Assembly (NCBI GenBank): GCA_963767365.1
Contig: CAVYEE010000030.1
Location: forward strand, 132,475-196,474
Origin: an uncultured Peptococcaceae bacterium
GTDB lineage: Bacteria > Bacillota > DSM-12270 > Thermacetogeniales > Thermacetogeniaceae
Length of the DNA: 64,000 nt
Direction of reading: 5' to 3'
Part shown: in pieces, positions 14,859 to 36,733 of the stretch
Layout: each line of letters begins with the position of its first letter
Position numbering within the stretch: position 1 is the stretch's first letter
The notes under the pieces: model-generated
What the model was told of the DNA's origin: nothing
Databases searched by the model: none
What the model saw: the letters and a program-made list of their open reading frames with translations, nothing else
Made by a program: the position numbers and the translations under genes

Positions 14859-15374
14859 TCAAAGACAGTTTCCTAGCAGGTAATCACACACCGGAAGCAC
14901 CGTGTCCTGAAGTTTCCGGGACAGTCCCGGAGCAACCTCCTCGGGGATAGATTGCGGTTCAACGGCAACAAGCAGCACATCGAGCTGACACTGGTGCTTC
15001 ATCTCTTTTAAAAGGCTGGATGTTGGCAGATGGTGCAGCGAAAAATCGCCGCCTTTAACCGAAGGGAAATCTTCAACAGGCCTCACGGACACTTCTCCCG
15101 GCTGTCTTCCTGCAATCATGGTGTCTATGGCGACTATTTTTTGCGGTCTGATGGGGGACAAGGCAACAGTACACAGGATATCCCTGATGCCAGTCCCCAC
15201 ATCCAGGATGCAGACATCATCCGGCACTTTGCAATGAGTTTGGAGATGCGCAGCTACGGCCGGACCGAAGCCGTCGTCACCAAAGAGGATGTTTCCGCAT
15301 CCCAAGACGAGCACACGACTCCTGCAGAATTCTGGGATACAATCTTCAATAGATACGCCTGGCCTGCTCATCAC
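14859..15374 (-). CDS. [NiFe] hydrogenase maturation endopeptidase
   Basis: It has VLVLGCGNILFGDDGFGP and a later ...H motif. It lies directly downstream of the large subunit with a 4-nt overlap. Confidence 0.8.
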   Translation of the reverse strand: MMSRPGVSIEDCIPEFCRSRVLVLGCGNILFGDDGFGPAVAAHLQTHCKVPDDVCILDVGTGIRDILCTVALSPIRPQKIVAIDTMIAGRQPGEVSVRPVEDFPSVKGGDFSLHHLPTSSLLKEMKHQCQLDVLLVAVEPQSIPEEVAPGLSRKLQDTVLPVCDYLLGNCL

Positions 15375-16811
15375 TCTGTTATTGTCCCGGCCAGGTTCCC
15401 ATTACAGTCAAAGACGTCTATCTTGACGGGGATCCTGGCATCAAGACTATGAGTCGCGCATGATAGGCACGGATCATAGGCCCGAATTGCCATTTCTACG
15501 GTGTTAAGCACTCCCTGGTCATATTGACCGCCTTTGATGTTGTCCTGAGCCGCTTTCTTGACCGACATATTGATGGCGGCATTGTTGTGGGTTGTTCCCA
15601 CAATAATATTGACGTCCGTCACTATGCCTTTCTCATCAGTCTGGTAGTCATGAATGAGCGTCCCGCCGAGGCGCCTCCACCACTCCAATGCCCCGGGCAG
15701 CCCGGGGGCTGACCGCTTTTCTGGTATTCGGATCTGTGATCTCGGGATCATTCAAAAGTTCGATCGCCCTTTCCGCCGCATACACCGACTCGATCAGTCT
15801 TGCCCAATGATAGAGCAGAGTTAATTGGGTTGGCCTCCCGAAGCTTGCCCTGAACTCCTCCAGTTCTTTGTTGGCAAGAGGCGTGGCGATGCGGTCACAC
15901 ACGTTGATTCTGGCCAGGGCGTTCGTCCTGTAGATACCGATCGGGTTAGCCAGGTCCATGGAGAAGGGTTCTGCTGCTTTCCGGTAATAGGGGAACTTCA
16001 TGTAAGTCCAGGGCTCGACATGTTCGGCAATATAGTCCAGGTACTGCTCGGCGGCAAAGTCTTCGTATGACCCATCCCGGGTCATCATCCGGAGGTTGCC
16101 GTCGTAGAGGTTCAACGCTCCGTCCTTGACCATTCCAAGAAAGCCAGTGCTGATGGGGGCAAAGGACTTGACCAGATCAAGGTACTTGGGGAAGATCTGC
16201 GTCTTGGCAAAGTCAATGGCAAAAGTAGTGAAATCCAGGCATTCCTCGGCCATACCCTTCAGGCGTTCGACCTCATCCTTAGTAACTGGCTTGCTCCAAC
16301 CCCCGGGAACGGAGACATCGGGGTGGATGGCCTTTCCGCCCAGAATTTGAGTCATCATCTGGGCTAAAAATCTGGTGCGTACCACTCGCTTAGCCAAGTC
16401 GGGAGCCCTCTGGACAATGCCTACCACATTCCTGATGGAGTAATCGGCATCCGGTCCCAGGACAAAGTCTGGTCCTGATAGGATGAAGAAATGCAACACG
16501 TGGCTGGAGATGAAATGGGCCATGTAGGCAAGCTCGCGCAGCTTCTTTGCCGCTGACGGTATCTCTACCCCGAAAACGGCATCGCAAGCCTTGGAGGATG
16601 CCAAATGGTGTGCCCAGGGACAGACACCACAGATACGGCACACAATGCGAGGCAGTTCCTCGACCGGCCGGCCGATGCAAAATCTTTCAAATCCCCTCAG
16701 TTCAACCACGTTGACCTTCGCATCAGCGACATTTCCCTGGTCATCGAGTTGAATCGTAACCTTGGCATGACCTTCAATCCTTGTTACAGGCTGAATTACA
16801 ATCTGCTTCAT
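15371..16811 (-). pseudogene. mvhA: [NiFe] hydrogenase large subunit (Mvh/F420-non-reducing type); apparent 1-nt frameshift near 15665
   Basis: The N-terminus has RIEGH and RICGVCPWAHH, and the C-terminus has DPCLSCATH. ORFs 15648..16868 and 15371..15751 join at the conserved EAPRG/TLIHDY motif if one C is removed. The start is ATG 16811, after AAGGAAGGAG. Confidence 0.8.
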
Positions 16812-16827
16812 GGCAATTTCTCCTTCC

Positions 16828-17751
16828 TTATTTTGTCGGTGTGGGCCGGAGCCGTCCCACCACACCAATGAACCGGTTAAAAGTGGCCGCCCGATCCTCT
16901 ATTTCCTTGACATCGAGCCCAATGCTCGAGAGGGCGCCCATCATATCGACCATCGGGTTAGCTCCGGCCCGGATGGGACCGAAACAACCACGGCAGGCCA
17001 TATAAGCCTTGATACAGCGAGGGGTTTTTTCCGACCCACCACAGCCAGACCTTGTTGCCGGTCCCAGGCAGAGGAAGCCCTGTTCCATCAGGCAGCGCAC
17101 CTCATTCATGGGTTGACCCGGCACGAACTCAGCATTCTCAAGCGGCCTCTTCAACTTCACTACAGCCTTCTTCTCCCTCCTGGTAGGGCAGTCGTCGCAG
17201 ACACTCCTCTCTGCAAGGGCGAAAGGCTTCCCCGCCAAGAGGCTGGTCAAGGCCTCAGCAATTAATTCAGGCGTGGGTGGACAGCCAGGCAACTGGACAT
17301 CAACCTTGACAACCTCACTCACTGAATATACCCTGTCCATGAAGGGGGGGATATCTGCAGCCGGGGTATCCGCCGGTTCGGTGCTGCTCGTGCCCCGGTA
17401 GACTTTATCGAAGATATCCTGTGTGGTGGACAGATTGCCTAAAGCTGGTATGCCGCCAAAGTTGGCACAGGAGCCGATGGCAATCAGTGTCTTACACTTG
17501 TTGCGCAGTTCCACGGCCACCTGTTTATTCTCCTCGGTACGGATGCCCCCGCTGATGATCCCCACATCGGCCTCCGGGATTTCCAGAGTGCTTTTCTCTC
17601 CCATTTGCCCATAATACTTATGGTCCATGAGCACGGGCATATGGACAAACTCCAACTCGGGCAACAAATCCAGCAATGGCTCTCCTATATCGAGAATACT
17701 GACCTCACAACCGCCGCAGGTGGCTAGCCACTCTTCCGCTACTCGCACCAT
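16828..17751 (-). CDS. mvhG: [NiFe] hydrogenase small subunit (MvhG-like)
   Basis: This 307 aa ORF has CGGCEVS, GSCANFGGIP and distal Fe-S Cys clusters, and no Tat signal. That fits a cytoplasmic Mvh-type enzyme. Confidence 0.8.
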   Translation of the reverse strand: MVRVAEEWLATCGGCEVSILDIGEPLLDLLPELEFVHMPVLMDHKYYGQMGEKSTLEIPEADVGIISGGIRTEENKQVAVELRNKCKTLIAIGSCANFGGIPALGNLSTTQDIFDKVYRGTSSTEPADTPAADIPPFMDRVYSVSEVVKVDVQLPGCPPTPELIAEALTSLLAGKPFALAERSVCDDCPTRREKKAVVKLKRPLENAEFVPGQPMNEVRCLMEQGFLCLGPATRSGCGGSEKTPRCIKAYMACRGCFGPIRAGANPMVDMMGALSSIGLDVKEIEDRAATFNRFIGVVGRLRPTPTK

Positions 17752-17988: not shown

Positions 17989-18405
17989 CTACATTTTAAA
18001 TGGGCTAGGCCCCAGAGCCTTTACTTGAGCTGTCATCTCGGTGACAACCTCGGCAAACCTGGGCGCCTCGGATGCCGATACCCATTCCAGCCTGAATCTC
18101 TCTTCTTCAATGCCCATGTCCTGCATCATCAGCTTGATGGCATCGGCCCTGGTTTGCGCCTTCAGGTTTCCCTCCAGGTAATGGCAATCTCCAATATGAC
18201 AGCCGCAAACAAGCACTCCGTCAGCGCCTTTAGTCAAAGCATCGATGATCAGGTTTGGATGCACCATCCCACTGCACATAACCCTGATGATCCGGATATT
18301 CGGCGGATATTGGAGCCGGGAAACTCCTGTCAGATCCGCCCCCGCATAAGAGCACCAGTTGCAGCAGAAGGTCACAATCAATGGTTCAAAAGTTTCTGTA
18401 CTCAT
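17989..18405 (-). CDS. mvhD: MvhD-type [2Fe-2S] hydrogenase/Hdr electron-transfer subunit (Cys form)
   Basis: This 138 aa ORF has [12 protein letters not shown]...RVMCSG...VCGCHIGDCHY. Confidence 0.85.
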   Translation of the reverse strand: MSTETFEPLIVTFCCNWCSYAGADLTGVSRLQYPPNIRIIRVMCSGMVHPNLIIDALTKGADGVLVCGCHIGDCHYLEGNLKAQTRADAIKLMMQDMGIEEERFRLEWVSASEAPRFAEVVTEMTAQVKALGPSPFKM

Positions 18406-24848: not shown

Positions 24849-25295
24849 CTTCACCACTCCCATATTTTGCCAAAACTTCTTTGACCAACTCCGGCCGCAT
24901 ATGGGCATATACTTGCTGATCAACCTGGATGACCGGCGCTAGGGCGCAACAACCGAGACACCGCACAATTTGCAGGCCGAACTTCCCGTCGGGAGTGACT
25001 TCGCCGGGCTTGATCTCCAGGGCTCTTTCCAGTTCATCCAGGATTCTGTCCGATCCGCGCACGAAGCAACTAGTGCCCTGGCAGATATTGATGACATGTT
25101 TGCCTTTCGGTTTGAGACTGAAAACGAGTAAAACGTAGCCACCTTCAAGATAGCGGCGAGAGGAATGTCGAGTTCTTGCGACACATGACGCAATACAGGC
25201 TCCGGCAGGTAGTTGAACTCTTTTGAATATCCTGAAGCACACTGATGAGTGGGCCGGCCTCGGCAACGGCGGTTGATAATGTCGTCAACTTTCAT
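24811..25295 (-). pseudogene. NuoE-like [2Fe-2S] thioredoxin-fold subunit; several apparent indels (about 25122, 25221, 25269)
   Basis: The conserved NuoE/HydC string can only be read by frame hopping: MKVDDIINR / VAEAGPLISVLQDIQK / EFNYLPEPVLRHVSQELDIPLAAILKVATFYS / FSLKPKGKHVINICQGTSCFVRG...CLGCCALAP. Confidence 0.65.
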
Positions 25296-25329
25296 TCGCC
25301 CTTCAGCCGGTAAGCCCGTTTCCTTCTGT

Positions 25330-25718
25330 TCAGGCTTGGGGTAAGATCGGTATTGGACCAGGCAATTTTGGGCGCATTCCCCACAGCCGGTGCATTTGTC
25401 CGGGTCAACCGAACGTGCTTTTTTCCTAATCCGGACACGGAACCGGCCCGGTGTTCCCTCAATATCAATTACCTCCGCATAAGTCAGCTTCTCGATGTTG
25501 ATGTGCCTGCCGCAGTCAACCATCCTGGGCGCTAAGGTGCACATGGCGCAATCATTCGTCGGGAAGGTCTTGTCGAGCTGGGCCATCACGCCGCCAATGG
25601 CGGGGTCCTTCTCCACCAGGTAAACCTTGAAACCAGATTCGGCCAGGTCAAGGGATGCCTGCATCCCGGCAATGCCGCCCCCCACCACCAGCACCGCGCC
25701 CACCTTTTGATCAGGCAT
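25330..25718 (-). pseudogene. hdrA: orphan HdrA N-terminal fragment (Rossmann GGGIAG + DKTFPTNDCAMC + first ferredoxin motif only)
   Basis: MPDQKVGAVLVVGGGIAGMQASLDLAESGFKVYLVEK...QLDKTFPTNDCAMC...CTGCGECAQNC, after which HdrA similarity stops. As sequenced, the frame runs on into nuoE. One extra C would give ...NCPGPIPILPQA-stop at 25330. Confidence 0.6.
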
Positions 25719-29851: not shown

Positions 29852-30691
29852 CTACCACTCGGGAGGCAATTTACGGAGTTGGGCCAGGTTGAAGACCGGA
29901 CCGTCGAGACAGATATACTTGGATCCGATGTTACAGCGGCCACATTGACCGATGCCGCACTTCATGCGCCCCTCAAGAGTGGTCACAATCTGGTTATCCT
30001 GGAAGCCTAGCTTCTGCAGCGATGCCAGCACCAGCCTGATCATGATCGGCGGCCCACAGACAACGGCAGTAACGTTATCCGAACTGGGAGCGAGCTCCTC
30101 CAGGCATGTGGGCACAAAAGCCACGTTGCCGTCCCAGCCTGACTCCGGGCGGTCGATCGTGGTGATCACCCTGGTATCCGGCTGGGATGGCCATAACTCG
30201 AACAGCTCTTTCTTAAAGCAGAGGTCTGCCACGCTGCGCGCCCCGTAGAGAATCTGGATGCTGCCATATTTCTCCCGGTTGGTAAAGCAGTGCTTGATCA
30301 GGGAGCGGAGCGGCGCCAGTCCGATCCCGCCTCCGATGAACAGCATGTTTTTCCCCTCGTACTCATCCACCGGAAAGCCGTTGCCATAGGGCCCCCTGAC
30401 CCCTAATTCCTGATCGATCTCGATCTCGTGCAGGGCGTCCGTCAAGAGGCCCACCCTTCTGATGGCAAACTCCAGGTGGTCTTCGGCCTGCCAGGCGACG
30501 GAAAACATCCCCTCGCCGACAGGCAGCAGGGAGACCATGCACAACTGCCCCGGCCTCACCTGAAAAGGCACACCATTTTCAGCGGTTAAGTGAAAGTTCT
30601 TAACGTCATAAGTTTCCTCGATGATGTCGATGACCTTGAAAATCCTCGGAACAAGCAGATTATTGCCATTGCTAACGGGAGACATCTGCAT
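29852..30691 (-). CDS. FAD/NAD(P)-binding + C-terminal [2Fe-2S] oxidoreductase (FlxA / AsrB / sulfhydrogenase-gamma-like)
   Basis: This 279 aa ORF has a ferredoxin-reductase fold (MLFIGGGIGLAPL) and a C-terminal CGIGQCGRCNIG. Confidence 0.75.
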   Translation of the reverse strand: MQMSPVSNGNNLLVPRIFKVIDIIEETYDVKNFHLTAENGVPFQVRPGQLCMVSLLPVGEGMFSVAWQAEDHLEFAIRRVGLLTDALHEIEIDQELGVRGPYGNGFPVDEYEGKNMLFIGGGIGLAPLRSLIKHCFTNREKYGSIQILYGARSVADLCFKKELFELWPSQPDTRVITTIDRPESGWDGNVAFVPTCLEELAPSSDNVTAVVCGPPIMIRLVLASLQKLGFQDNQIVTTLEGRMKCGIGQCGRCNIGSKYICLDGPVFNLAQLRKLPPEW

Positions 30692-31690
30692 TGACCTCCC
30701 CCATCCGGTTGATGATTGATACTATACTGATGCCGCTCGGGCACAGCGCCACACAACGTCCACAACCGCTGCAGCCAAAAGAGCCGTAGCGCTCGGGGAA
30801 GAATTCCAGCTTGTCGAGGAACCGGTTGCGGAACCGGTCGCGCTTATTCGCCCTGGGGTTATGTCCGCCGGCCATCAGGTTGTATTCCTGGTACATGCAA
30901 GAGTCCCAGCAACGGAAACGGCTCCCTGACTGACCGCGATTTTCTACCTGGATGTCAAAGCAGTGGCAGCTCGGGCAGACATACGTGCAGATACCGCAGT
31001 TGATGCAGCGGGATGACAGCTCATCCCACACCGGATGGTCGAACAGGCCGTTCAACCTGGCAGGCAGATCCCGCGTCCTGAGTTCCAGTTGGCAGCCAGC
31101 CGCGGGCTGCCTCGCAAAATCCCCGGCGTCAACCAGCAGGTCGTCCAACCGGTTAGTGAGGTCCCGCCCCTTTGTGGTTACCGGTTCCCAGGCATACCAT
31201 CCGATCCTTCATGGAGTAGCACGTCGGCTACTTCGGCGCCCATCGGGTCAACGCCCATCGATGAGCAGAAGCATAACGGGCCGGGCCGGGCACACGTGAT
31301 GCCGATCACGGTCAACCGGTCTCTTCGTGCCTGGTAAGAGGTATCTACATAGCCCCGCCTCAGGAACACCTGGTCAAGGTTGGCGATACCCCTCCGGTCA
31401 CAGGCCCGCGCCCCGAAGAGGATGCTGGGGTCTAACCCGTCATGCGTCCCGGTGATCTTGACTTGCTGGTGGTCTGCTGTGAAGCCATACATTGTTTCCG
31501 TTTGCGGGAAAACCAACCCTTTTGGGGAAAAGGTGGTATTCAGGCTGTCCAGAACCAGGTCGGACGTGCGCTCAACCGACCACAGCCCGAAACTGCTGGT
31601 TGCCTCATCTTGCAACGGGACATAGATACGGGCCTCTCCTGCCAACCGGTCAAGGACGGCTGTGATCTTATCTTTAGGCAAGCTCTTCAT
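30672..31690 (-). pseudogene. 4Fe-4S dicluster protein (AsrA / FlxB-like); apparent frameshift near 31200-31212
   Basis: ORF 31178..31690 ends ...ADVLLHEGSDGMPGNR-stop. A neighbouring frame is open from (R)IGWYAWEPVTTKGRDLTNRLDDLLVDAG... into ORF 30672..31148 (CINCGICTYVCPSCHC, CSGCGRCVALCP). Confidence 0.65.
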
Positions 31691-31696
31691 CTGATG

Positions 31697-32620
31697 TCAC
31701 CTCTCTGTGGCGAAGGGATCCGGGTCTTCCGCCCCGTACCTGCTCAGGGGTGGTTTTGCCCCCTCTTCCAGGCTCAAGGCGGCCTCGTATGGTCCGAAAA
31801 GCTGATCGACGTCCTTGATCAGCTTGCTGTTCAATAACATCAAGGGAAGCCCCGCCGGGCAGGCCCTTTCACATTCTCCGCACTCCACGCACCGGCCGGC
31901 AACATGCATCGCCCTGATCACATGGAACATCATATTGTCTGCGACATTGATCGACCGCTCGACCCACTGGGGGCGGGTCTCATCAAAAATACAGCGGCGG
32001 CAGTTGCAGGCGACACAGATGTTCCGGCAGGCGTAGCAGCGGATGCACCTGGAGAACAGGTTCGTGAAGAACCGGCTGCGCTCATCGGCGCTCATCGATT
32101 CGATCCGCTTGACGTCGGCAAACCGCTCCCCGCTCAGGTGCGGCGGCTGAGGATCGCCGAGTGTCTCATCGTAGATGACCGGGTTCGGGTGAACGCACTG
32201 CAGGCATTTGCCGGCCAATGAGAGGTGAGATGTGTTCGCACGTCCCAACGCCAGGCCTGATGAGTCCAGGGCTTCGGCCACCGGGTCTTTCATCCCGGGA
32301 CAGGCGATGCCGATGATATAGAGCCTCTCCCGCGGGAATTGCCCATCCTCCGCCAGGCGCACGATGCCGCGGGAATCGCAGCCCTTGACAAAGATGCCGA
32401 TCTTCTCCTGCCTGTCGCGGTAATCGAGCAGATACACGCTCAGGTTGTGGATGCAATACTCGTCGAAGATCAGCCGTCCGGCTTCCTCCTGACGGCTGAT
32501 GAAGGCGGGAACGCTCTGGTTCGTTCCCTGTTCCTTGGCCCAGCCAAAGACCAGGTCTACCTGCCTGTTTTCCAACAGCGTTCTGGCTAACCGCTGTACG
32601 TCGGGCGTTAGATCGTTCAT
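31697..32620 (-). CDS. Fe-S oxidoreductase (FlxC / FrhB-like, two 4Fe-4S motifs)
   Basis: The start is ATG 32620 (MNDLTPDV...), overlapping the corrected upstream stop as ATGA. Motifs are CIRCYACRNICVACNC and CVECGECERACP. The first 52 aa of track ORF 31697..32776 belong to the upstream MvhD domain. Confidence 0.7.
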   Translation of the reverse strand: MNDLTPDVQRLARTLLENRQVDLVFGWAKEQGTNQSVPAFISRQEEAGRLIFDEYCIHNLSVYLLDYRDRQEKIGIFVKGCDSRGIVRLAEDGQFPRERLYIIGIACPGMKDPVAEALDSSGLALGRANTSHLSLAGKCLQCVHPNPVIYDETLGDPQPPHLSGERFADVKRIESMSADERSRFFTNLFSRCIRCYACRNICVACNCRRCIFDETRPQWVERSINVADNMMFHVIRAMHVAGRCVECGECERACPAGLPLMLLNSKLIKDVDQLFGPYEAALSLEEGAKPPLSRYGAEDPDPFATER

Positions 32621-32806
32621 ACGACATCCCTCATTGTTCTGCATGGCCCGAGCCTGCGCACGTCGTCGACCACCATCCTCATATGGTCGGCAAACTTCTC
32701 CCCTCTCGGACCCGGAGATCCAGACCGTATGGTATCTCTCCCGTTCGATGCCCAGGTATTCCATGAGATTTTTCATCAGCGCATGACGCCGTCTGGTATA
32801 ATAATT

Positions 32807-32823
32807 GCCACTAGCATAGTGGC
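32807..32823 (-). other. SECIS-like hairpin 13 nt downstream of TGA 32837-32839
   Basis: GCCACUA-ugc-UAGUGGC lies at the distance expected for a bacterial SECIS. Confidence 0.4.
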
Positions 32824-34399
32824 AGTCACCGATGTGTCAGCCGGACACCAGGACGGCATCGGCTCCCTGATGAAATGCCCGCAGCACGAACTGGGGATCT
32901 ACCCGGCCGGAACAGGGGACACGGATCAGCCTGATGTCGGCCGGATACTGCAAGCGGCTCAACCCCGCCAGGTCGGCCCCGGCATAGGAGCACCAGTTAC
33001 AGGCAAAGGCCACAATCTTAGGCTTCCAATCGCCGTCTAGAGACATAAACGCATCCACCTCCGCAACCAGTTGTTCATCGGTGAAACCCTTCAGATTCAG
33101 CGCTCCCGGCCGGCAGGCACAGACGCAGGCGCCACAGCCCTGGCACAATGCCTCATTGACGGATGCCACCTGGCGCTCGATACCCTGATGGCCGCCCGAC
33201 CGCACAGTTTCCAAGCTGATCGCCTTGTAGGGACAGATCGGAACGCAGAGCCCACAACCGGAGCACTTGAGCGGGTCGACCCCGGAGACCATCGGCTGGG
33301 TGGCCAGTTCTGACTTGGAGAAGAGCCCACAGACCTTGACGGCTGCAGCGCCGGCCTGGGCAACGGTATCCGGAATGTCCTTGGGTCCCTGGCAGGCGCC
33401 TGCCAGGTAGACACCCCCGGTGAATGTCTCCACGGGTTGGAGCTTGCGGATGGGCCTCCTGGAAGAAGCCGTCCTTGTCGGTCGAGAACCCGACCACCTT
33501 GGCAACCTCGTCTGACCCGCCGGACGGAACCATTGCCGTGGCGAGCACCACCATGTCGACTTCCACCTCGAGCAGCAGTCCGAGCAGGGTATCCTCGCTC
33601 TTCAAAACCAACCGCTGGCCGCGGGGGTAGATCTTGCTCACCCGTCCCCGGATGTACTTGACCCCCTTGTTCAGGGCACGCTGGTAAAACTCTTCGTATC
33701 CCTTGCCGGCGGTGCGGACGTCCATGTAAAAGACGTAGGCCTCGCCGCCCGGGATCTTGTCCACCACCTGCATGGCGTGTTTAGCCGTATACATGCAGCA
33801 GGCACGCGAGCAGTAGGACTTGCCCTTGGTGTTGTCCCGCGAGCCAACGCACTTGATGAAGGCCACGCTCCGCGGTTCTTCATGATCGGATGGGCGCTTG
33901 ATCTTACCGCCCGTGGGGCCGGAGGCGTTGACCAGCCGCTCGAAGTGCAGCCCGGAGATCACGTCGGGGAACTGGCCATAGCCGTATTCTCCGTACTTGC
34001 TCGCCCAGTCGAACTGGTCGTATCCGGTGGCCATCACGATGGCACCCACCGACTCGGTCACCAGTTCGTCCTGGTCTTTAAAATTGATTGCCTGGGTGGG
34101 GCAGACCTTCTCGCACACCCCGCATTTGCCATCCGTCAACATGCGGCAGTTTTGCGCGTCAATGACCGGTTTGTTGGGCACAGACTGTGCAAATACTTTA
34201 TGGATGGCCGTTCTGGTTCCCAGTCCCAGGTCAAATTCGTTCGGAATCTTCTTTCTCGGGCACTTGGTCTCACAGGTGCCGCAACCGTTGCATTTATCCC
34301 AATCAACATACTTGGCCTTGCGCCGTATAGTCGCCGAAAAGTTCCCGATATAGCCGTTGACTGCCTCGACCTCTGACAGGGTATAGATTTTAATGTGAG

Positions 34400-34420
34400 G
34401 ATGCTGTGCCACAGCAACCA
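34400..34420 (-). other. SECIS-like hairpin about 19 nt downstream of TGA 34437-34439
   Basis: GGUUGCUG-uggca-CAGCAUCC forms an 8-bp stem with one U.U mismatch. Confidence 0.35.
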
Positions 34421-35040
34421 TCTTGGGGGTGCTAATTCAGGCGGAACAGTCCAGGGTGGGGAAAGTCTTGTCCAACTGGGCCATCTTTCCCCCAATGGTG
34501 GCCTCCCGCTCCACCAGCACCACTTCGTATCCGGCGTCGGCGATATCCAGGGCCGACTGCATGCCGGCGATGCCGCCCCCAACCACCAGCGCCCGTTTGG
34601 TGACCGGGATGGTACCGGTCTGTAGCGGCTTGTTCTTCAACACCTTGAAGACCGCCATTCTGACCAGGTCGCATGCCTTGCGGGTGGCCTCTTCGCCGTC
34701 GGAGTGGACCCAGGCGTCCTGCTCCCGAATGTTGACCATTTCAAAGAGATATGGATTCAAGCCCGCCCTGGCGACCGCCTGGCGGAAAGTGTTCTCGTGC
34801 ATCCGCGGGGAGCAGGATGCCACCACCACCTGGCTTAACCTTTGTTCCCTGATAGCTTTTTTGATCAGCTCCTGTCCCGGATCAGAACACATGTACTTGT
34901 ATGTAGTGCTGAAGACCACGCCGGACATCTTGGCGGCTGACTCGGCCACCTTCCCGGTATCCACGGTTCCCGCGATATTGGAACCACAATCACAAACGAA
35001 GACTCCAACTCTCTTCATCCAAGTCACCTCATTTTTTGAG

Positions 35041-35118: not shown

Positions 35119-36535
35119 TTAGCGGGCAAGATGTCTTACCGCTTCCACGAAGTGACGGTTGACCCCGACGCTTTCTGGCGAGGCGCCGCAGGCCACTGCT
35201 ACCAGTTCGGTGATGTAATAGACAGGGATGGTCACTCTTGTCCCCAGCATTCTCTCGATCTGGCGGCGCCGCATATCCAGGTTCGTGTGACAGAGCGGGC
35301 AGGCGGTTACTATACTGTCGGCGCCGCTCTCCTCAGCGTTTTTCAAGATTTTGTAGGCCATCCGGAGACCCACATCCGGAAGGGTGGTTGCCAGGCTGGC
35401 CCCGCAGCATTCAGTCTGATGCGACCAGGCAACCGGCTCGGCCCAGAACCCGCATGATGTTATCCATCGACTGAGGATACTCGGGATCATCGAACCCGGT
35501 GTACTCTACCGGTCTGACCAGAAAACATCCATAATAACAGGCCGGCCGCAGCCTTTGCAGCGGCTGCGTAATTTTACCGGCTACGGCCTCCAGCCCGACA
35601 TCGACTGCCAGTAACTCCAGCACCGAAACTGTTCGGTTGGTCGCCCTGTATTCTATGCCGATCGCTTCATTGATCACCTTGAGCATGGTTGACTGATGCG
35701 CATGGTGTTCAGTCGCCCGGAAGCGGTTGTAGCAGGCGGCACACGGCGCCAGGACATTCAGCCCTTCCTGCTCGGCCAGGGCGAGATTGCGGGCGGGCAG
35801 GGCCAGCGAGAGAAGCTTGCTGGTACTATGAGCGGAAGTGGCTCCGCAACAGCTCCAGTCCTTGATCTCTTGCAATTCGACTCCCAGCAGATCCGCCGTT
35901 TTTTGCACGGAGGACCCGTATTCGGCTGCGGATGTCTCCAGTGAACAACCGGGATAATAGGCGATCCTCAACTCTCTTCCGCCCTCCATCCGTTTCACCC
36001 GGGCATAGATCCGACTGACGGCGTTCCGGTCCTTGACCATATTGGGGAACACGTGCATTTTACCACGCTGCGCCATCGGTATCCCCAGGTCTGTATCCTT
36101 TAACAGTTGACCGGTTCGCAGGTTGTATTCCATCAGCAGGCCAGCCTCGAATAACCGCCCGAATCTGACCACCGACCTGAGGAATACATCATTGAAAACG
36201 GCGATCTTACGATTGGTAACGATCTTTCTTCTCAGGGCTTCTCTTCGTAAAGCATCCATCAGCGCCGCGACATTCACTCCCTGGGGGCAACGGGTCGTAC
36301 AGGTTTCACAGGTGACGCACAACCAGATGCCGTCAGCCTTCAGCGCCTCGTCTACCATCTCCAACTGCAGCAGCCGGATCACCCGCCTGGGCGTGAAGCT
36401 CATGCCAAAACCCGCCGGACATCCCGCCGAGCATTTCCCGCACTGGTAGCACAGGCTGACCTTTGTTCCGCTTTCCTGCTCGATCCGTCTGATCAGATTT
36501 TTTTTAGATTCGTCGGGAGCGAGGATCGCTTCCAA
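35119..36535 (-). pseudogene. HdrC-HdrB fusion protein; apparent 1-nt frameshift near 35441
   Basis: The HdrC part has CYQCGKCSAGCP and CVTCETCTTRCP. The HdrB part has YYPGCSL..WSCCGA and ...ACYYGCFLVRP. It continues in ORF 35119..35490 as ...DNIMRVLG/EPVAWSHQTECCGAS... The preferred start is TTG 36535, 6 nt after GAGGGGGAG, because the track start GTG 36628 lies inside repeat A3. Confidence 0.75.
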
Positions 36536-36596
36536 AAGGGTCTCCCCCTCTATAAAATATCTATGCTTATTTCTCGATTCTCTGTCGTCTTCCTCT

Positions 36597-36733
36597 TTAC
36601 CACAAATGACTACCCGCTCTAATGCCACCGCTTCTGAAGCGGTTGGATAAGAGCGGCTACGCCTCTAGTTAACTATTTCTAAGCTTCAGTGGGGGTAAGA
36701 CAATCTCCCACTGAAGCCAAGAACTAGTTGAAC
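36597..36733 (+). repeat. family A repeat, copy A3
   Basis: This is a full two-module copy, with the inner stem variant GCCACCGCTTCTGAAGCGGTTGG. Confidence 0.85.

Follow-up and report, generated by a model that had tools for sequence, protein, structure and literature searches.

Among prokaryotic selenoproteins, HdrA, with its CxxU motif, and FrhD/MvhD/VhuD are two of the longest-known families (PMC9312934, PMC13188914). Selenocysteine forms of both HdrA and FrhD/MvhD have been listed for Syntrophomonas wolfei, Carboxydothermus hydrogenoformans, Desulfotomaculum reducens and Moorella thermoacetica (Zhang et al. 2006, PMC1794560). Desulfobacterium autotrophicum has selenocysteine-encoding hdrA and mvhD beside paralogues with cysteine, and fusions of HdrA to MvhD are known in Methanosarcina and Archaeoglobus (PMC2702500). 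In the HdrA of Methanococcus maripaludis the selenocysteine is residue 197, and a 2026 cryo-EM study found density between a cysteine and Sec197, between the A3 cluster and FAD; its authors propose a selenylsulfide relay at Sec197, a residue whose role they themselves call unresolved (PMC13518236). FlxABCD-HdrABC complexes are proposed to be NADH-linked bifurcating enzymes in anaerobic bacteria, Syntrophomonas included (PMC6687939).

The DNA considered here, a stretch of 64,000 nucleotides referred to below as the window, belongs to a MAG of an uncultured Bacillota bacterium (2.99 Mb in 42 contigs, 86% complete). The closest named record for the hdr locus within it is 'Peptococcaceae bacterium nzgw226' (G004 below), of the same genus as the host, with 79% nucleotide identity to the locus and an HdrA that is 88% identical; after it the next relatives are many Syntrophomonadaceae, Syntrophothermus and Thermosyntropha genomes. 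The locus is transcribed from the minus strand and its gene order, which is collinear in G004, is as follows.

35119..36628, minus strand: hdrC-hdrB, encoding a 4Fe-4S dicluster domain and two CCG domains (Pfam Fer4_8 and CCG matches), 5′ of hdrA and in the same operon
33037..35018, minus strand: hdrA, encoding an HdrA-type flavoprotein of about 660 amino acids, with its ATG at 35018 and its ancestral stop, TAG, at 33039-33037
32617..33046, minus strand: mvhD/flxD, about 142 amino acids, with its ATG at 33046-33044 and a stop, TGA at 32619-32617, that overlaps the ATG of the next gene
32620-31697, minus strand: gene for a flxC-like 4Fe-4S protein (Pfam), 3′ of mvhD
31690-30672, minus strand: gene for a flxB/AsrA-like Fer4_22 protein (Pfam), with a frame break at about 31197
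30691-29852, minus strand: gene for a flxA/AsrB-like NAD-binding flavoprotein (Pfam)

The flx-like genes match NCBIfam TIGR02911 and PRK08345 with scores under cut-off. Judged from domain content, the operon appears to hold the module set of FlxABCD-HdrABC complexes. As these are described (Ramos et al. 2015, cited in PMC6687939), the modules are the same, namely HdrC/B, HdrA, an MvhD-like FlxD, two FeS proteins and an NAD(P)-binding flavoprotein, the likeness being one of domain content; in this operon the genes run hdrCB-hdrA-flxD-C-B-A, with an apparent fusion of hdrC to hdrB. In contrast to the MvhAGD-HdrABC complex (5ODC, the cysteine form), the partners of HdrA are Flx-like NAD(P)H modules and not hydrogenase, and so its substrate is probably not CoM-S-S-CoB. 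Selenocysteine is absent from the upstream HdrB, which has cysteines at its motif and reads ...TECCGAS..., and from MvhA, the large subunit of the [NiFe] hydrogenase encoded in the window, which reads DPCLSC.

It is in hdrA and mvhD that a TGA interrupts conserved coding sequence, and each of the two, read directly from the sequence, is followed by a hairpin.

34437..34439, minus strand: UGA, candidate selenocysteine codon 1, at HdrA residue 194, in the motif DCSA-U (CxxU)
34399..34419, minus strand: hdrA bSECIS-type hairpin, GGUUGCUGU-GGC-ACAGCAUCC, starting 17 nt past the UGA, with its apical loop 26 nt past the UGA
32837..32839, minus strand: UGA, candidate selenocysteine codon 2, at MvhD residue 70, in the motif SG-U-HIGDCHY
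32806..32824, minus strand: mvhD bSECIS-type hairpin, UGCCACUA-UGC-UAGUGGCA, starting 12 nt past the UGA, with its apical loop 20 nt past the UGA

A sequence-only reading of the window had proposed these two codons as selenocysteine candidates opposite cysteines of paralogues 7-15 kb away, and both alignments hold. With TGA read as U, codon 1 lies in QLDKTFPTLDCSA-U-ISTPKMVAVAQ, which aligns with the cysteine-bearing MAQLDKTFPTNDCAMCTLAPRMV of the paralogue encoded by ORF 24939-25718, about 8.7 kb off, and the peptide around codon 2 aligns with the cysteine-bearing GADGVLVCGCHIGDCHY of the mvhD paralogue at 17989-18405, about 14.4 kb off.

The hdrA product is a full-length member of the HdrA family, with the N-terminal four-cysteine region, a FAD/thioredoxin-reductase domain bearing the CxxC/U motif, and ferredoxin domains, inserted and C-terminal; its residues 3-656 align with residues 5-648 of chain A of PDB 5ODC (E = 1e-220). 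Its scores against NCBIfam models of HdrA2 (NF040770, 830 bits with a cut-off of 1100) and against NF041778 (604 bits with a cut-off of 1400) are below the equivalog cut-offs for methanogen HdrA/HdrA2, so that it is to be seen as a homologue and not as the methanogen equivalog. Residue 194 is in the column of Cys197 of the Methanothermococcus HdrA in 5ODC, the same column that is Sec197 in M. maripaludis (PMC13518236). The selenocysteine-containing HdrA of M. maripaludis and Methanocaldococcus thus shares with that encoded here its architecture, this column and the DCSxC/U motif near FAD, whereas the methanogen SECIS is archaeal and in the 3′-UTR and the hairpin here is of bacterial type and within the ORF. 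MvhD matches PF02662 over its full length (all 123 profile positions, 1-123) with 178.8 bits, which exceeds the Pfam gathering score, and matches chain D of 5ODC with E = 2e-53, and its residue 70 is in the column of the invariant Cys67 of GCHxGDCHY in that chain and in other solved MvhD/VhuD chains. Literature searches on the [2Fe-2S] ligands of MvhD and on IfoAB with heterodisulfide reductase returned nothing.

The host genome has the machinery for selenocysteine insertion whose search had been suggested with the original reading: selA (601.8 bits), selB (342.9 bits, split over two frames), selD (400.7 bits) and a tRNA-Sec (75.8 bits) for which ARAGORN gives the anticodon TCA/UCA. The selD gene has an in-frame TGA, ...LAHCAG-U-AAKISP..., and so is itself selenocysteine-containing. 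The recommended alignment with orthologues, too, gave selenocysteine/cysteine pairs at exactly the two columns. Of the best 11 loci from relatives, with the locus itself excluded, 10 have TGA at the HdrA column and 9 have it at the MvhD column, cysteine codons taking its place in the rest, and the closest named relatives of the locus (Syntrophomonadaceae, Thermosyntropha and 'Peptococcaceae' MAGs) have TGA at both sites. In a wider set of 80 species-level loci from GTDB genomes, 76 of them with an mvhD match, the HdrA column is TGA in 63 and TGT/TGC in 17, while the MvhD column, for those 76, is TGA in 63 and TGT/TGC in 13. When the two columns are taken together the comparison is a clean selenocysteine/cysteine series in which the hairpin comes and goes with the UGA: both genes have TGA (U/U) in 57 of the 80 loci, hdrA has cysteine and mvhD TGA (C/U) in 6, the converse (U/C) holds in 2, both have cysteine (C/C) in 11, and a further 4 have TGA in hdrA and no mvhD match.

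The published constraints for a bSECIS are a loop of 3-9 nt with G in one of its first two positions, a spacing of 16-37 nt and an MFE of at most -7.5 (PMC13188914). They are satisfied by both hairpins, that of hdrA with the loop GGC at 26 nt and an MFE of -10.7 to -10.9 kcal/mol and one U.U mismatch, and that of mvhD, of 8 bp, with the loop UGC at 20 nt and an MFE of -11.1 kcal/mol. The hairpin earlier proposed behind each TGA does exist. Taken alone, the hdrA hairpin is no better than chance when compared with shuffled sequence (z = -0.5 for 55 nt and -1.9 for the minimal hairpin), and that of mvhD is moderately better (z = -2.2 and -3.6, respectively). The hairpins nevertheless have real support, and that support is comparative, coming from conservation that tracks the TGA and not from the folding energy of the window alone. 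Both are at a fixed register to the TGA across relatives, kept in all genes of selenocysteine type and lost in those of cysteine type, though the sequences compared are coding and phylogenetically related and so are not independent. Among 67 distinct selenocysteine-type sequences the five core pairs of the hdrA hairpin are 100% canonical and all nine pairs 88%, in comparison with pairing in 42% of cells for 17 distinct cysteine-type sequences; for mvhD the figures are 99.6% of cells (64 distinct selenocysteine-type sequences) versus 62.5% (14 distinct cysteine-type). In selenocysteine-type relatives the mvhD hairpin is UGCCACUA-UGN-UAGUGGCA, with UGG, UGU or UGC as its loop, and cysteine-type genes have Thr and other codons in place of the Ser codon AGU of its 3′ arm. 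Because the pairs are mostly invariant and are inside coding sequence, true compensatory change is seen at only one of them, the loop-closing pair of hdrA, which among selenocysteine-type sequences is U-A in 24, U.G in 24 and C-G in 19. Rfam gave no SECIS or other credible family, either for the whole window at gathering score or for 32600-34600 at E <= 10, a null that is uninformative since no curated model matched here; its two weak matches, to a miRNA and a hammerhead with E of 3-4, were dismissed as chance.

With the insertion machinery, the selenocysteine/cysteine pairs in relatives and the hairpins that track the TGA, the case for both TGAs serving as selenocysteine codons is well supported. 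Insertion of selenocysteine by way of SelB and a hairpin is established for bacteria. By analogy, SelB-GTP with Sec-tRNA(Sec) would bind the in-coding hairpin 20-26 nt past each UGA and the complex would compete with release factor 2 in delivering selenocysteine to the ribosome. The selenocysteine of HdrA would then take the place of the second cysteine of the CxxC beside the bifurcating FAD, and that of MvhD would take the place of the invariant cysteine of GCHxGDCHY in the [2Fe-2S] subunit from which HdrA receives electrons, the two genes being adjacent and probably translationally coupled in an operon of hdrCB-hdrA-flxDCBA type.

Whether the two proteins are separate is a different matter, as the frame had been described as running on through both stops, with both selenocysteines in one fused polypeptide. 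Coding does continue past each TGA, but there are frame breaks near 33447 and near 32704. A distance of 1600 nt, no multiple of 3, separates the two TGAs, and so they are not in one frame; no sensible ORF holds both, even with TGA read as U. Nor was a single uninterrupted frame through both domains, conserved in relatives, found for an HdrA-MvhD fusion. Alignment with G004 reveals exactly three extra single bases in the window (33447, 33049 and 32704) and otherwise one 3-nt indel.

33446..33447, minus strand: extra base in hdrA relative to G004, shifting the frame between EAHP and KLQPVET
33047..33049, minus strand: TTT run with one T more than in relatives, the window having GCGTTTATGTCTCTAG and G004 GCA-TTATGCCTGTAG
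32704, minus strand: extra base in mvhD relative to G004, shifting the frame between WISGSE and GEKFA

Guided translation shows the conserved protein carrying on in another frame past 33447 and past 32704, and the C-terminus of MvhD, GEKFADHMRMVVDDVRRLGPCRTMRDVV followed by the stop, is read in the shifted frame of the assembly. The T at 33049-33047 removes the hdrA stop and is alone in putting the C-terminus of hdrA in frame with mvhD. In G004 the junction reads GAT GCA TTA TGC CTG TAG (...DALCL and stop), with the ATG of mvhD embedded in it (ATGCCTGTAG), and that of the window, GATGCGTTTATGTCTCTAG, is arranged likewise, apart from a single T added in the T run. An end in ...AEVDALCL with a 10-nt overlap of stop and start (ATGTCTATAG) is present in 26 of the 34 relatives scored, the exceptions being mostly an artefact of the script having chosen the wrong upstream ATG, and mvhD is in the -1 frame relative to hdrA across the 80 loci, with the exception of Scalindua.

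Breaks of this kind are not confined to hdrA and mvhD. The operon is also broken in hdrB (about 35441-35484, two frames by tblastn with G004 proteins) and in the AsrA-like gene (about 31197), giving five frame-disrupting indels per ~6.8 kb, a density somewhat above that in rpoBC. In the same assembly rpoB is split over two frames and rpoC over three, the latter with two 1-nt insertions compared with G004 (C10:60762 and C10:61422), whereas in the relatives G004 and G011 one open frame of about 1200 amino acids covers rpoC, and in G002 the gene is interrupted by contig ends only; in selB the C-terminal half is intact, in the +1 frame. As rpoB, rpoC and selB carry similar +1 breaks, those at the locus are very probably assembly errors. 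With essential genes hit likewise and the corrected frames of the locus all open, conserved and ~88% identical to G004, insertion error in the assembly is the parsimonious reading, and the apparent HdrA-MvhD fusion most likely stems from such single-base insertions.

The account of the locus that is held with high confidence is thus that hdrA and mvhD would be separate, coupled genes with one selenocysteine-decoded UGA each, the frame breaks and the fusion being products of assembly insertion errors. Were the frameshifts real, the hdr-flx operon would be decaying to pseudogenes and its TGAs would be unexpressed relics of ancestral selenocysteine codons, a prospect to which the five indels in ~6.8 kb, denser than in rpoBC, lend something; it is unlikely, as rpoB and rpoC, which are essential, and selB have the same +1 breaks, marking the assembly itself as indel-prone, while the corrected frames are free of stops at their ~88% identity to G004, deletions or other decay are absent and both hairpins are intact. 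Programmed +1 frameshifting was considered for the same breaks and rejected because CCG-C-AAG, GAG-A-GGG and GCG-TTT-ATG are not slippery, relatives lack these sites and have uninterrupted frames, and rpoB, rpoC and selB break alike.

A genuine T at 33049, with only the breaks at 33447 and 32704 being errors, would yield one polypeptide with two selenocysteines. This would be a recent fusion of hdrA and flxD/mvhD in which each selenocysteine has its own in-ORF SECIS, and two successive SelB-dependent recoding events would be needed per mRNA. The assembled frame is indeed continuous from the C-terminus of HdrA into MvhD, and such fusions exist elsewhere, in Scalindua loci, in Methanosarcina and Archaeoglobus (PMC2702500) and as HdrA2 of NF040770, which spans both parts of what in the assembled window is one frame. 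That join needs the extra T, however, and the T lengthens a T run in an insertion-prone assembly, the ancestral tail ALCL with its stop and the overlapping ATG both survive, shifted in register by exactly one base, and the genes are separate in G004 and ~76 other relatives, making a real fusion very improbable. Slighter still is the chance that the TGAs are ordinary stops or base-call errors, in genes that are truncated or cysteine-coding and without selenocysteine. The assembly does have errors and gene callers would stop at both TGAs, but the same TGA recurs at the same column in assemblies independent of one another, dozens in number, where conserved coding sequence and a TGA-linked hairpin follow it, the errors found in this assembly are insertions and not substitutions, and the selenocysteine machinery is complete. 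An alternative code with UGA as Trp or Gly was also rejected, as both UGAs align with cysteine, TGA is the stop codon of many genes in the window and the genome has a tRNA-Sec.

With separate selenocysteine-containing hdrA and mvhD as the preferred reading, the locus resembles closely the Clostridia and Deltaproteobacteria systems, including that of Syntrophobacter fumaroxidans: the same two families are encoded by adjacent genes, here in an anaerobic member of the Bacillota. Only the host differs, the MAG being absent from the papers on those systems, and no functional difference is seen. The earlier placing of selenocysteine forms in methanococci, Deltaproteobacteria and Firmicutes was broadly right for a host that is a Bacillota MAG, and selenocysteine-containing HdrA and MvhD as predicted here are of the kind listed for Clostridia since 2006, leaving current understanding unchanged.

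From an annotation perspective, standard gene finders would call hdrA and mvhD truncated or pseudogenes, and annotation as selenoproteins with transl_except is appropriate. In the genes examined, insertions in the MAG come at about one per 1.5-4 kb and make false fusions and false pseudogenes; because they are so frequent, other findings of frame continuity on this genome need the same caution. A true fusion of hdrA and mvhD does appear to exist in Scalindua, for which there are four loci, two of them reading through as a single match.

The selenocysteine (Sec) or cysteine state of hdrA varies independently of that of the adjacent mvhD (flxD) gene among 80 related loci: 57 have Sec in both and 11 Cys in both, while two combine Sec-HdrA with Cys-MvhD, and six combine Cys-HdrA with Sec-MvhD. 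Cys-HdrA with Sec-MvhD is the state of the Desulforudis-like group. In all Sec-type mvhD genes among the 80, a serine encoded by AGU directly follows Tyr-(Gly/Ala/Val), and this codon makes up the hairpin's 3′ arm; threonine or other codons take its place in mvhD genes of the Cys type. The selD product of the source assembly (contig C29:45039-45962) is itself a predicted selenoprotein, with an in-frame TGA within ...LAHCAG-U-AAKISP..., at the UxxK motif position.

Reading frames of essential genes are broken elsewhere in the same assembly, as follows.

C10:56717-63607, rpoB and rpoC, frame broken by +1 shifts into two or three frames
C17:113151-115026, selB, frame broken by a +1 shift

With the same-genus relative nzgw226 as reference, rpoC has two 1-nt insertions (C10:60762 and C10:61422). 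The assembly appears to be systematically prone to insertions, and every gene fusion, split gene or pseudogene called on this genome therefore needs confirmation at the level of reads.

This indel problem bears on hdrC and hdrB, which are a single fused frame as assembled (window 35119-36628; …RMEGGRELRIAYYPGC…) but occupy two frames in nzgw226 (contig C109, 6097-7577; …RMEAEERCE* / …RALRIAYYPGC…), and either may be the true arrangement. The window hdrB frame is also broken at about 35441-35484. An AsrA/FlxB-like Fer4_22 gene (30672-31690) is broken at about 31197 into ORFs 31178-31690 and 30672-31148, whereas its nzgw226 counterpart is one 340-aa ORF. In the other cluster of the window, the MvhA-type [NiFe] hydrogenase large subunit (15371-16868) has Cys, not Sec, in its C-terminal DPCLSC, and its frame is broken near 15665-15750. 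In ORF 24939-25718, the Cys paralogue, a segment that is plausibly from the N-terminus of HdrA gives way to a tail resembling out-of-frame NuoE (…ATFYSFSVSNRKANMSS…), which suggests further indels within this ORF.

An ATGA at 32617-32620, where the mvhD stop overlaps the start of the next gene, together with the 10-nt overlap of hdrA and mvhD, indicates tight translational coupling along the hdr-flx operon.
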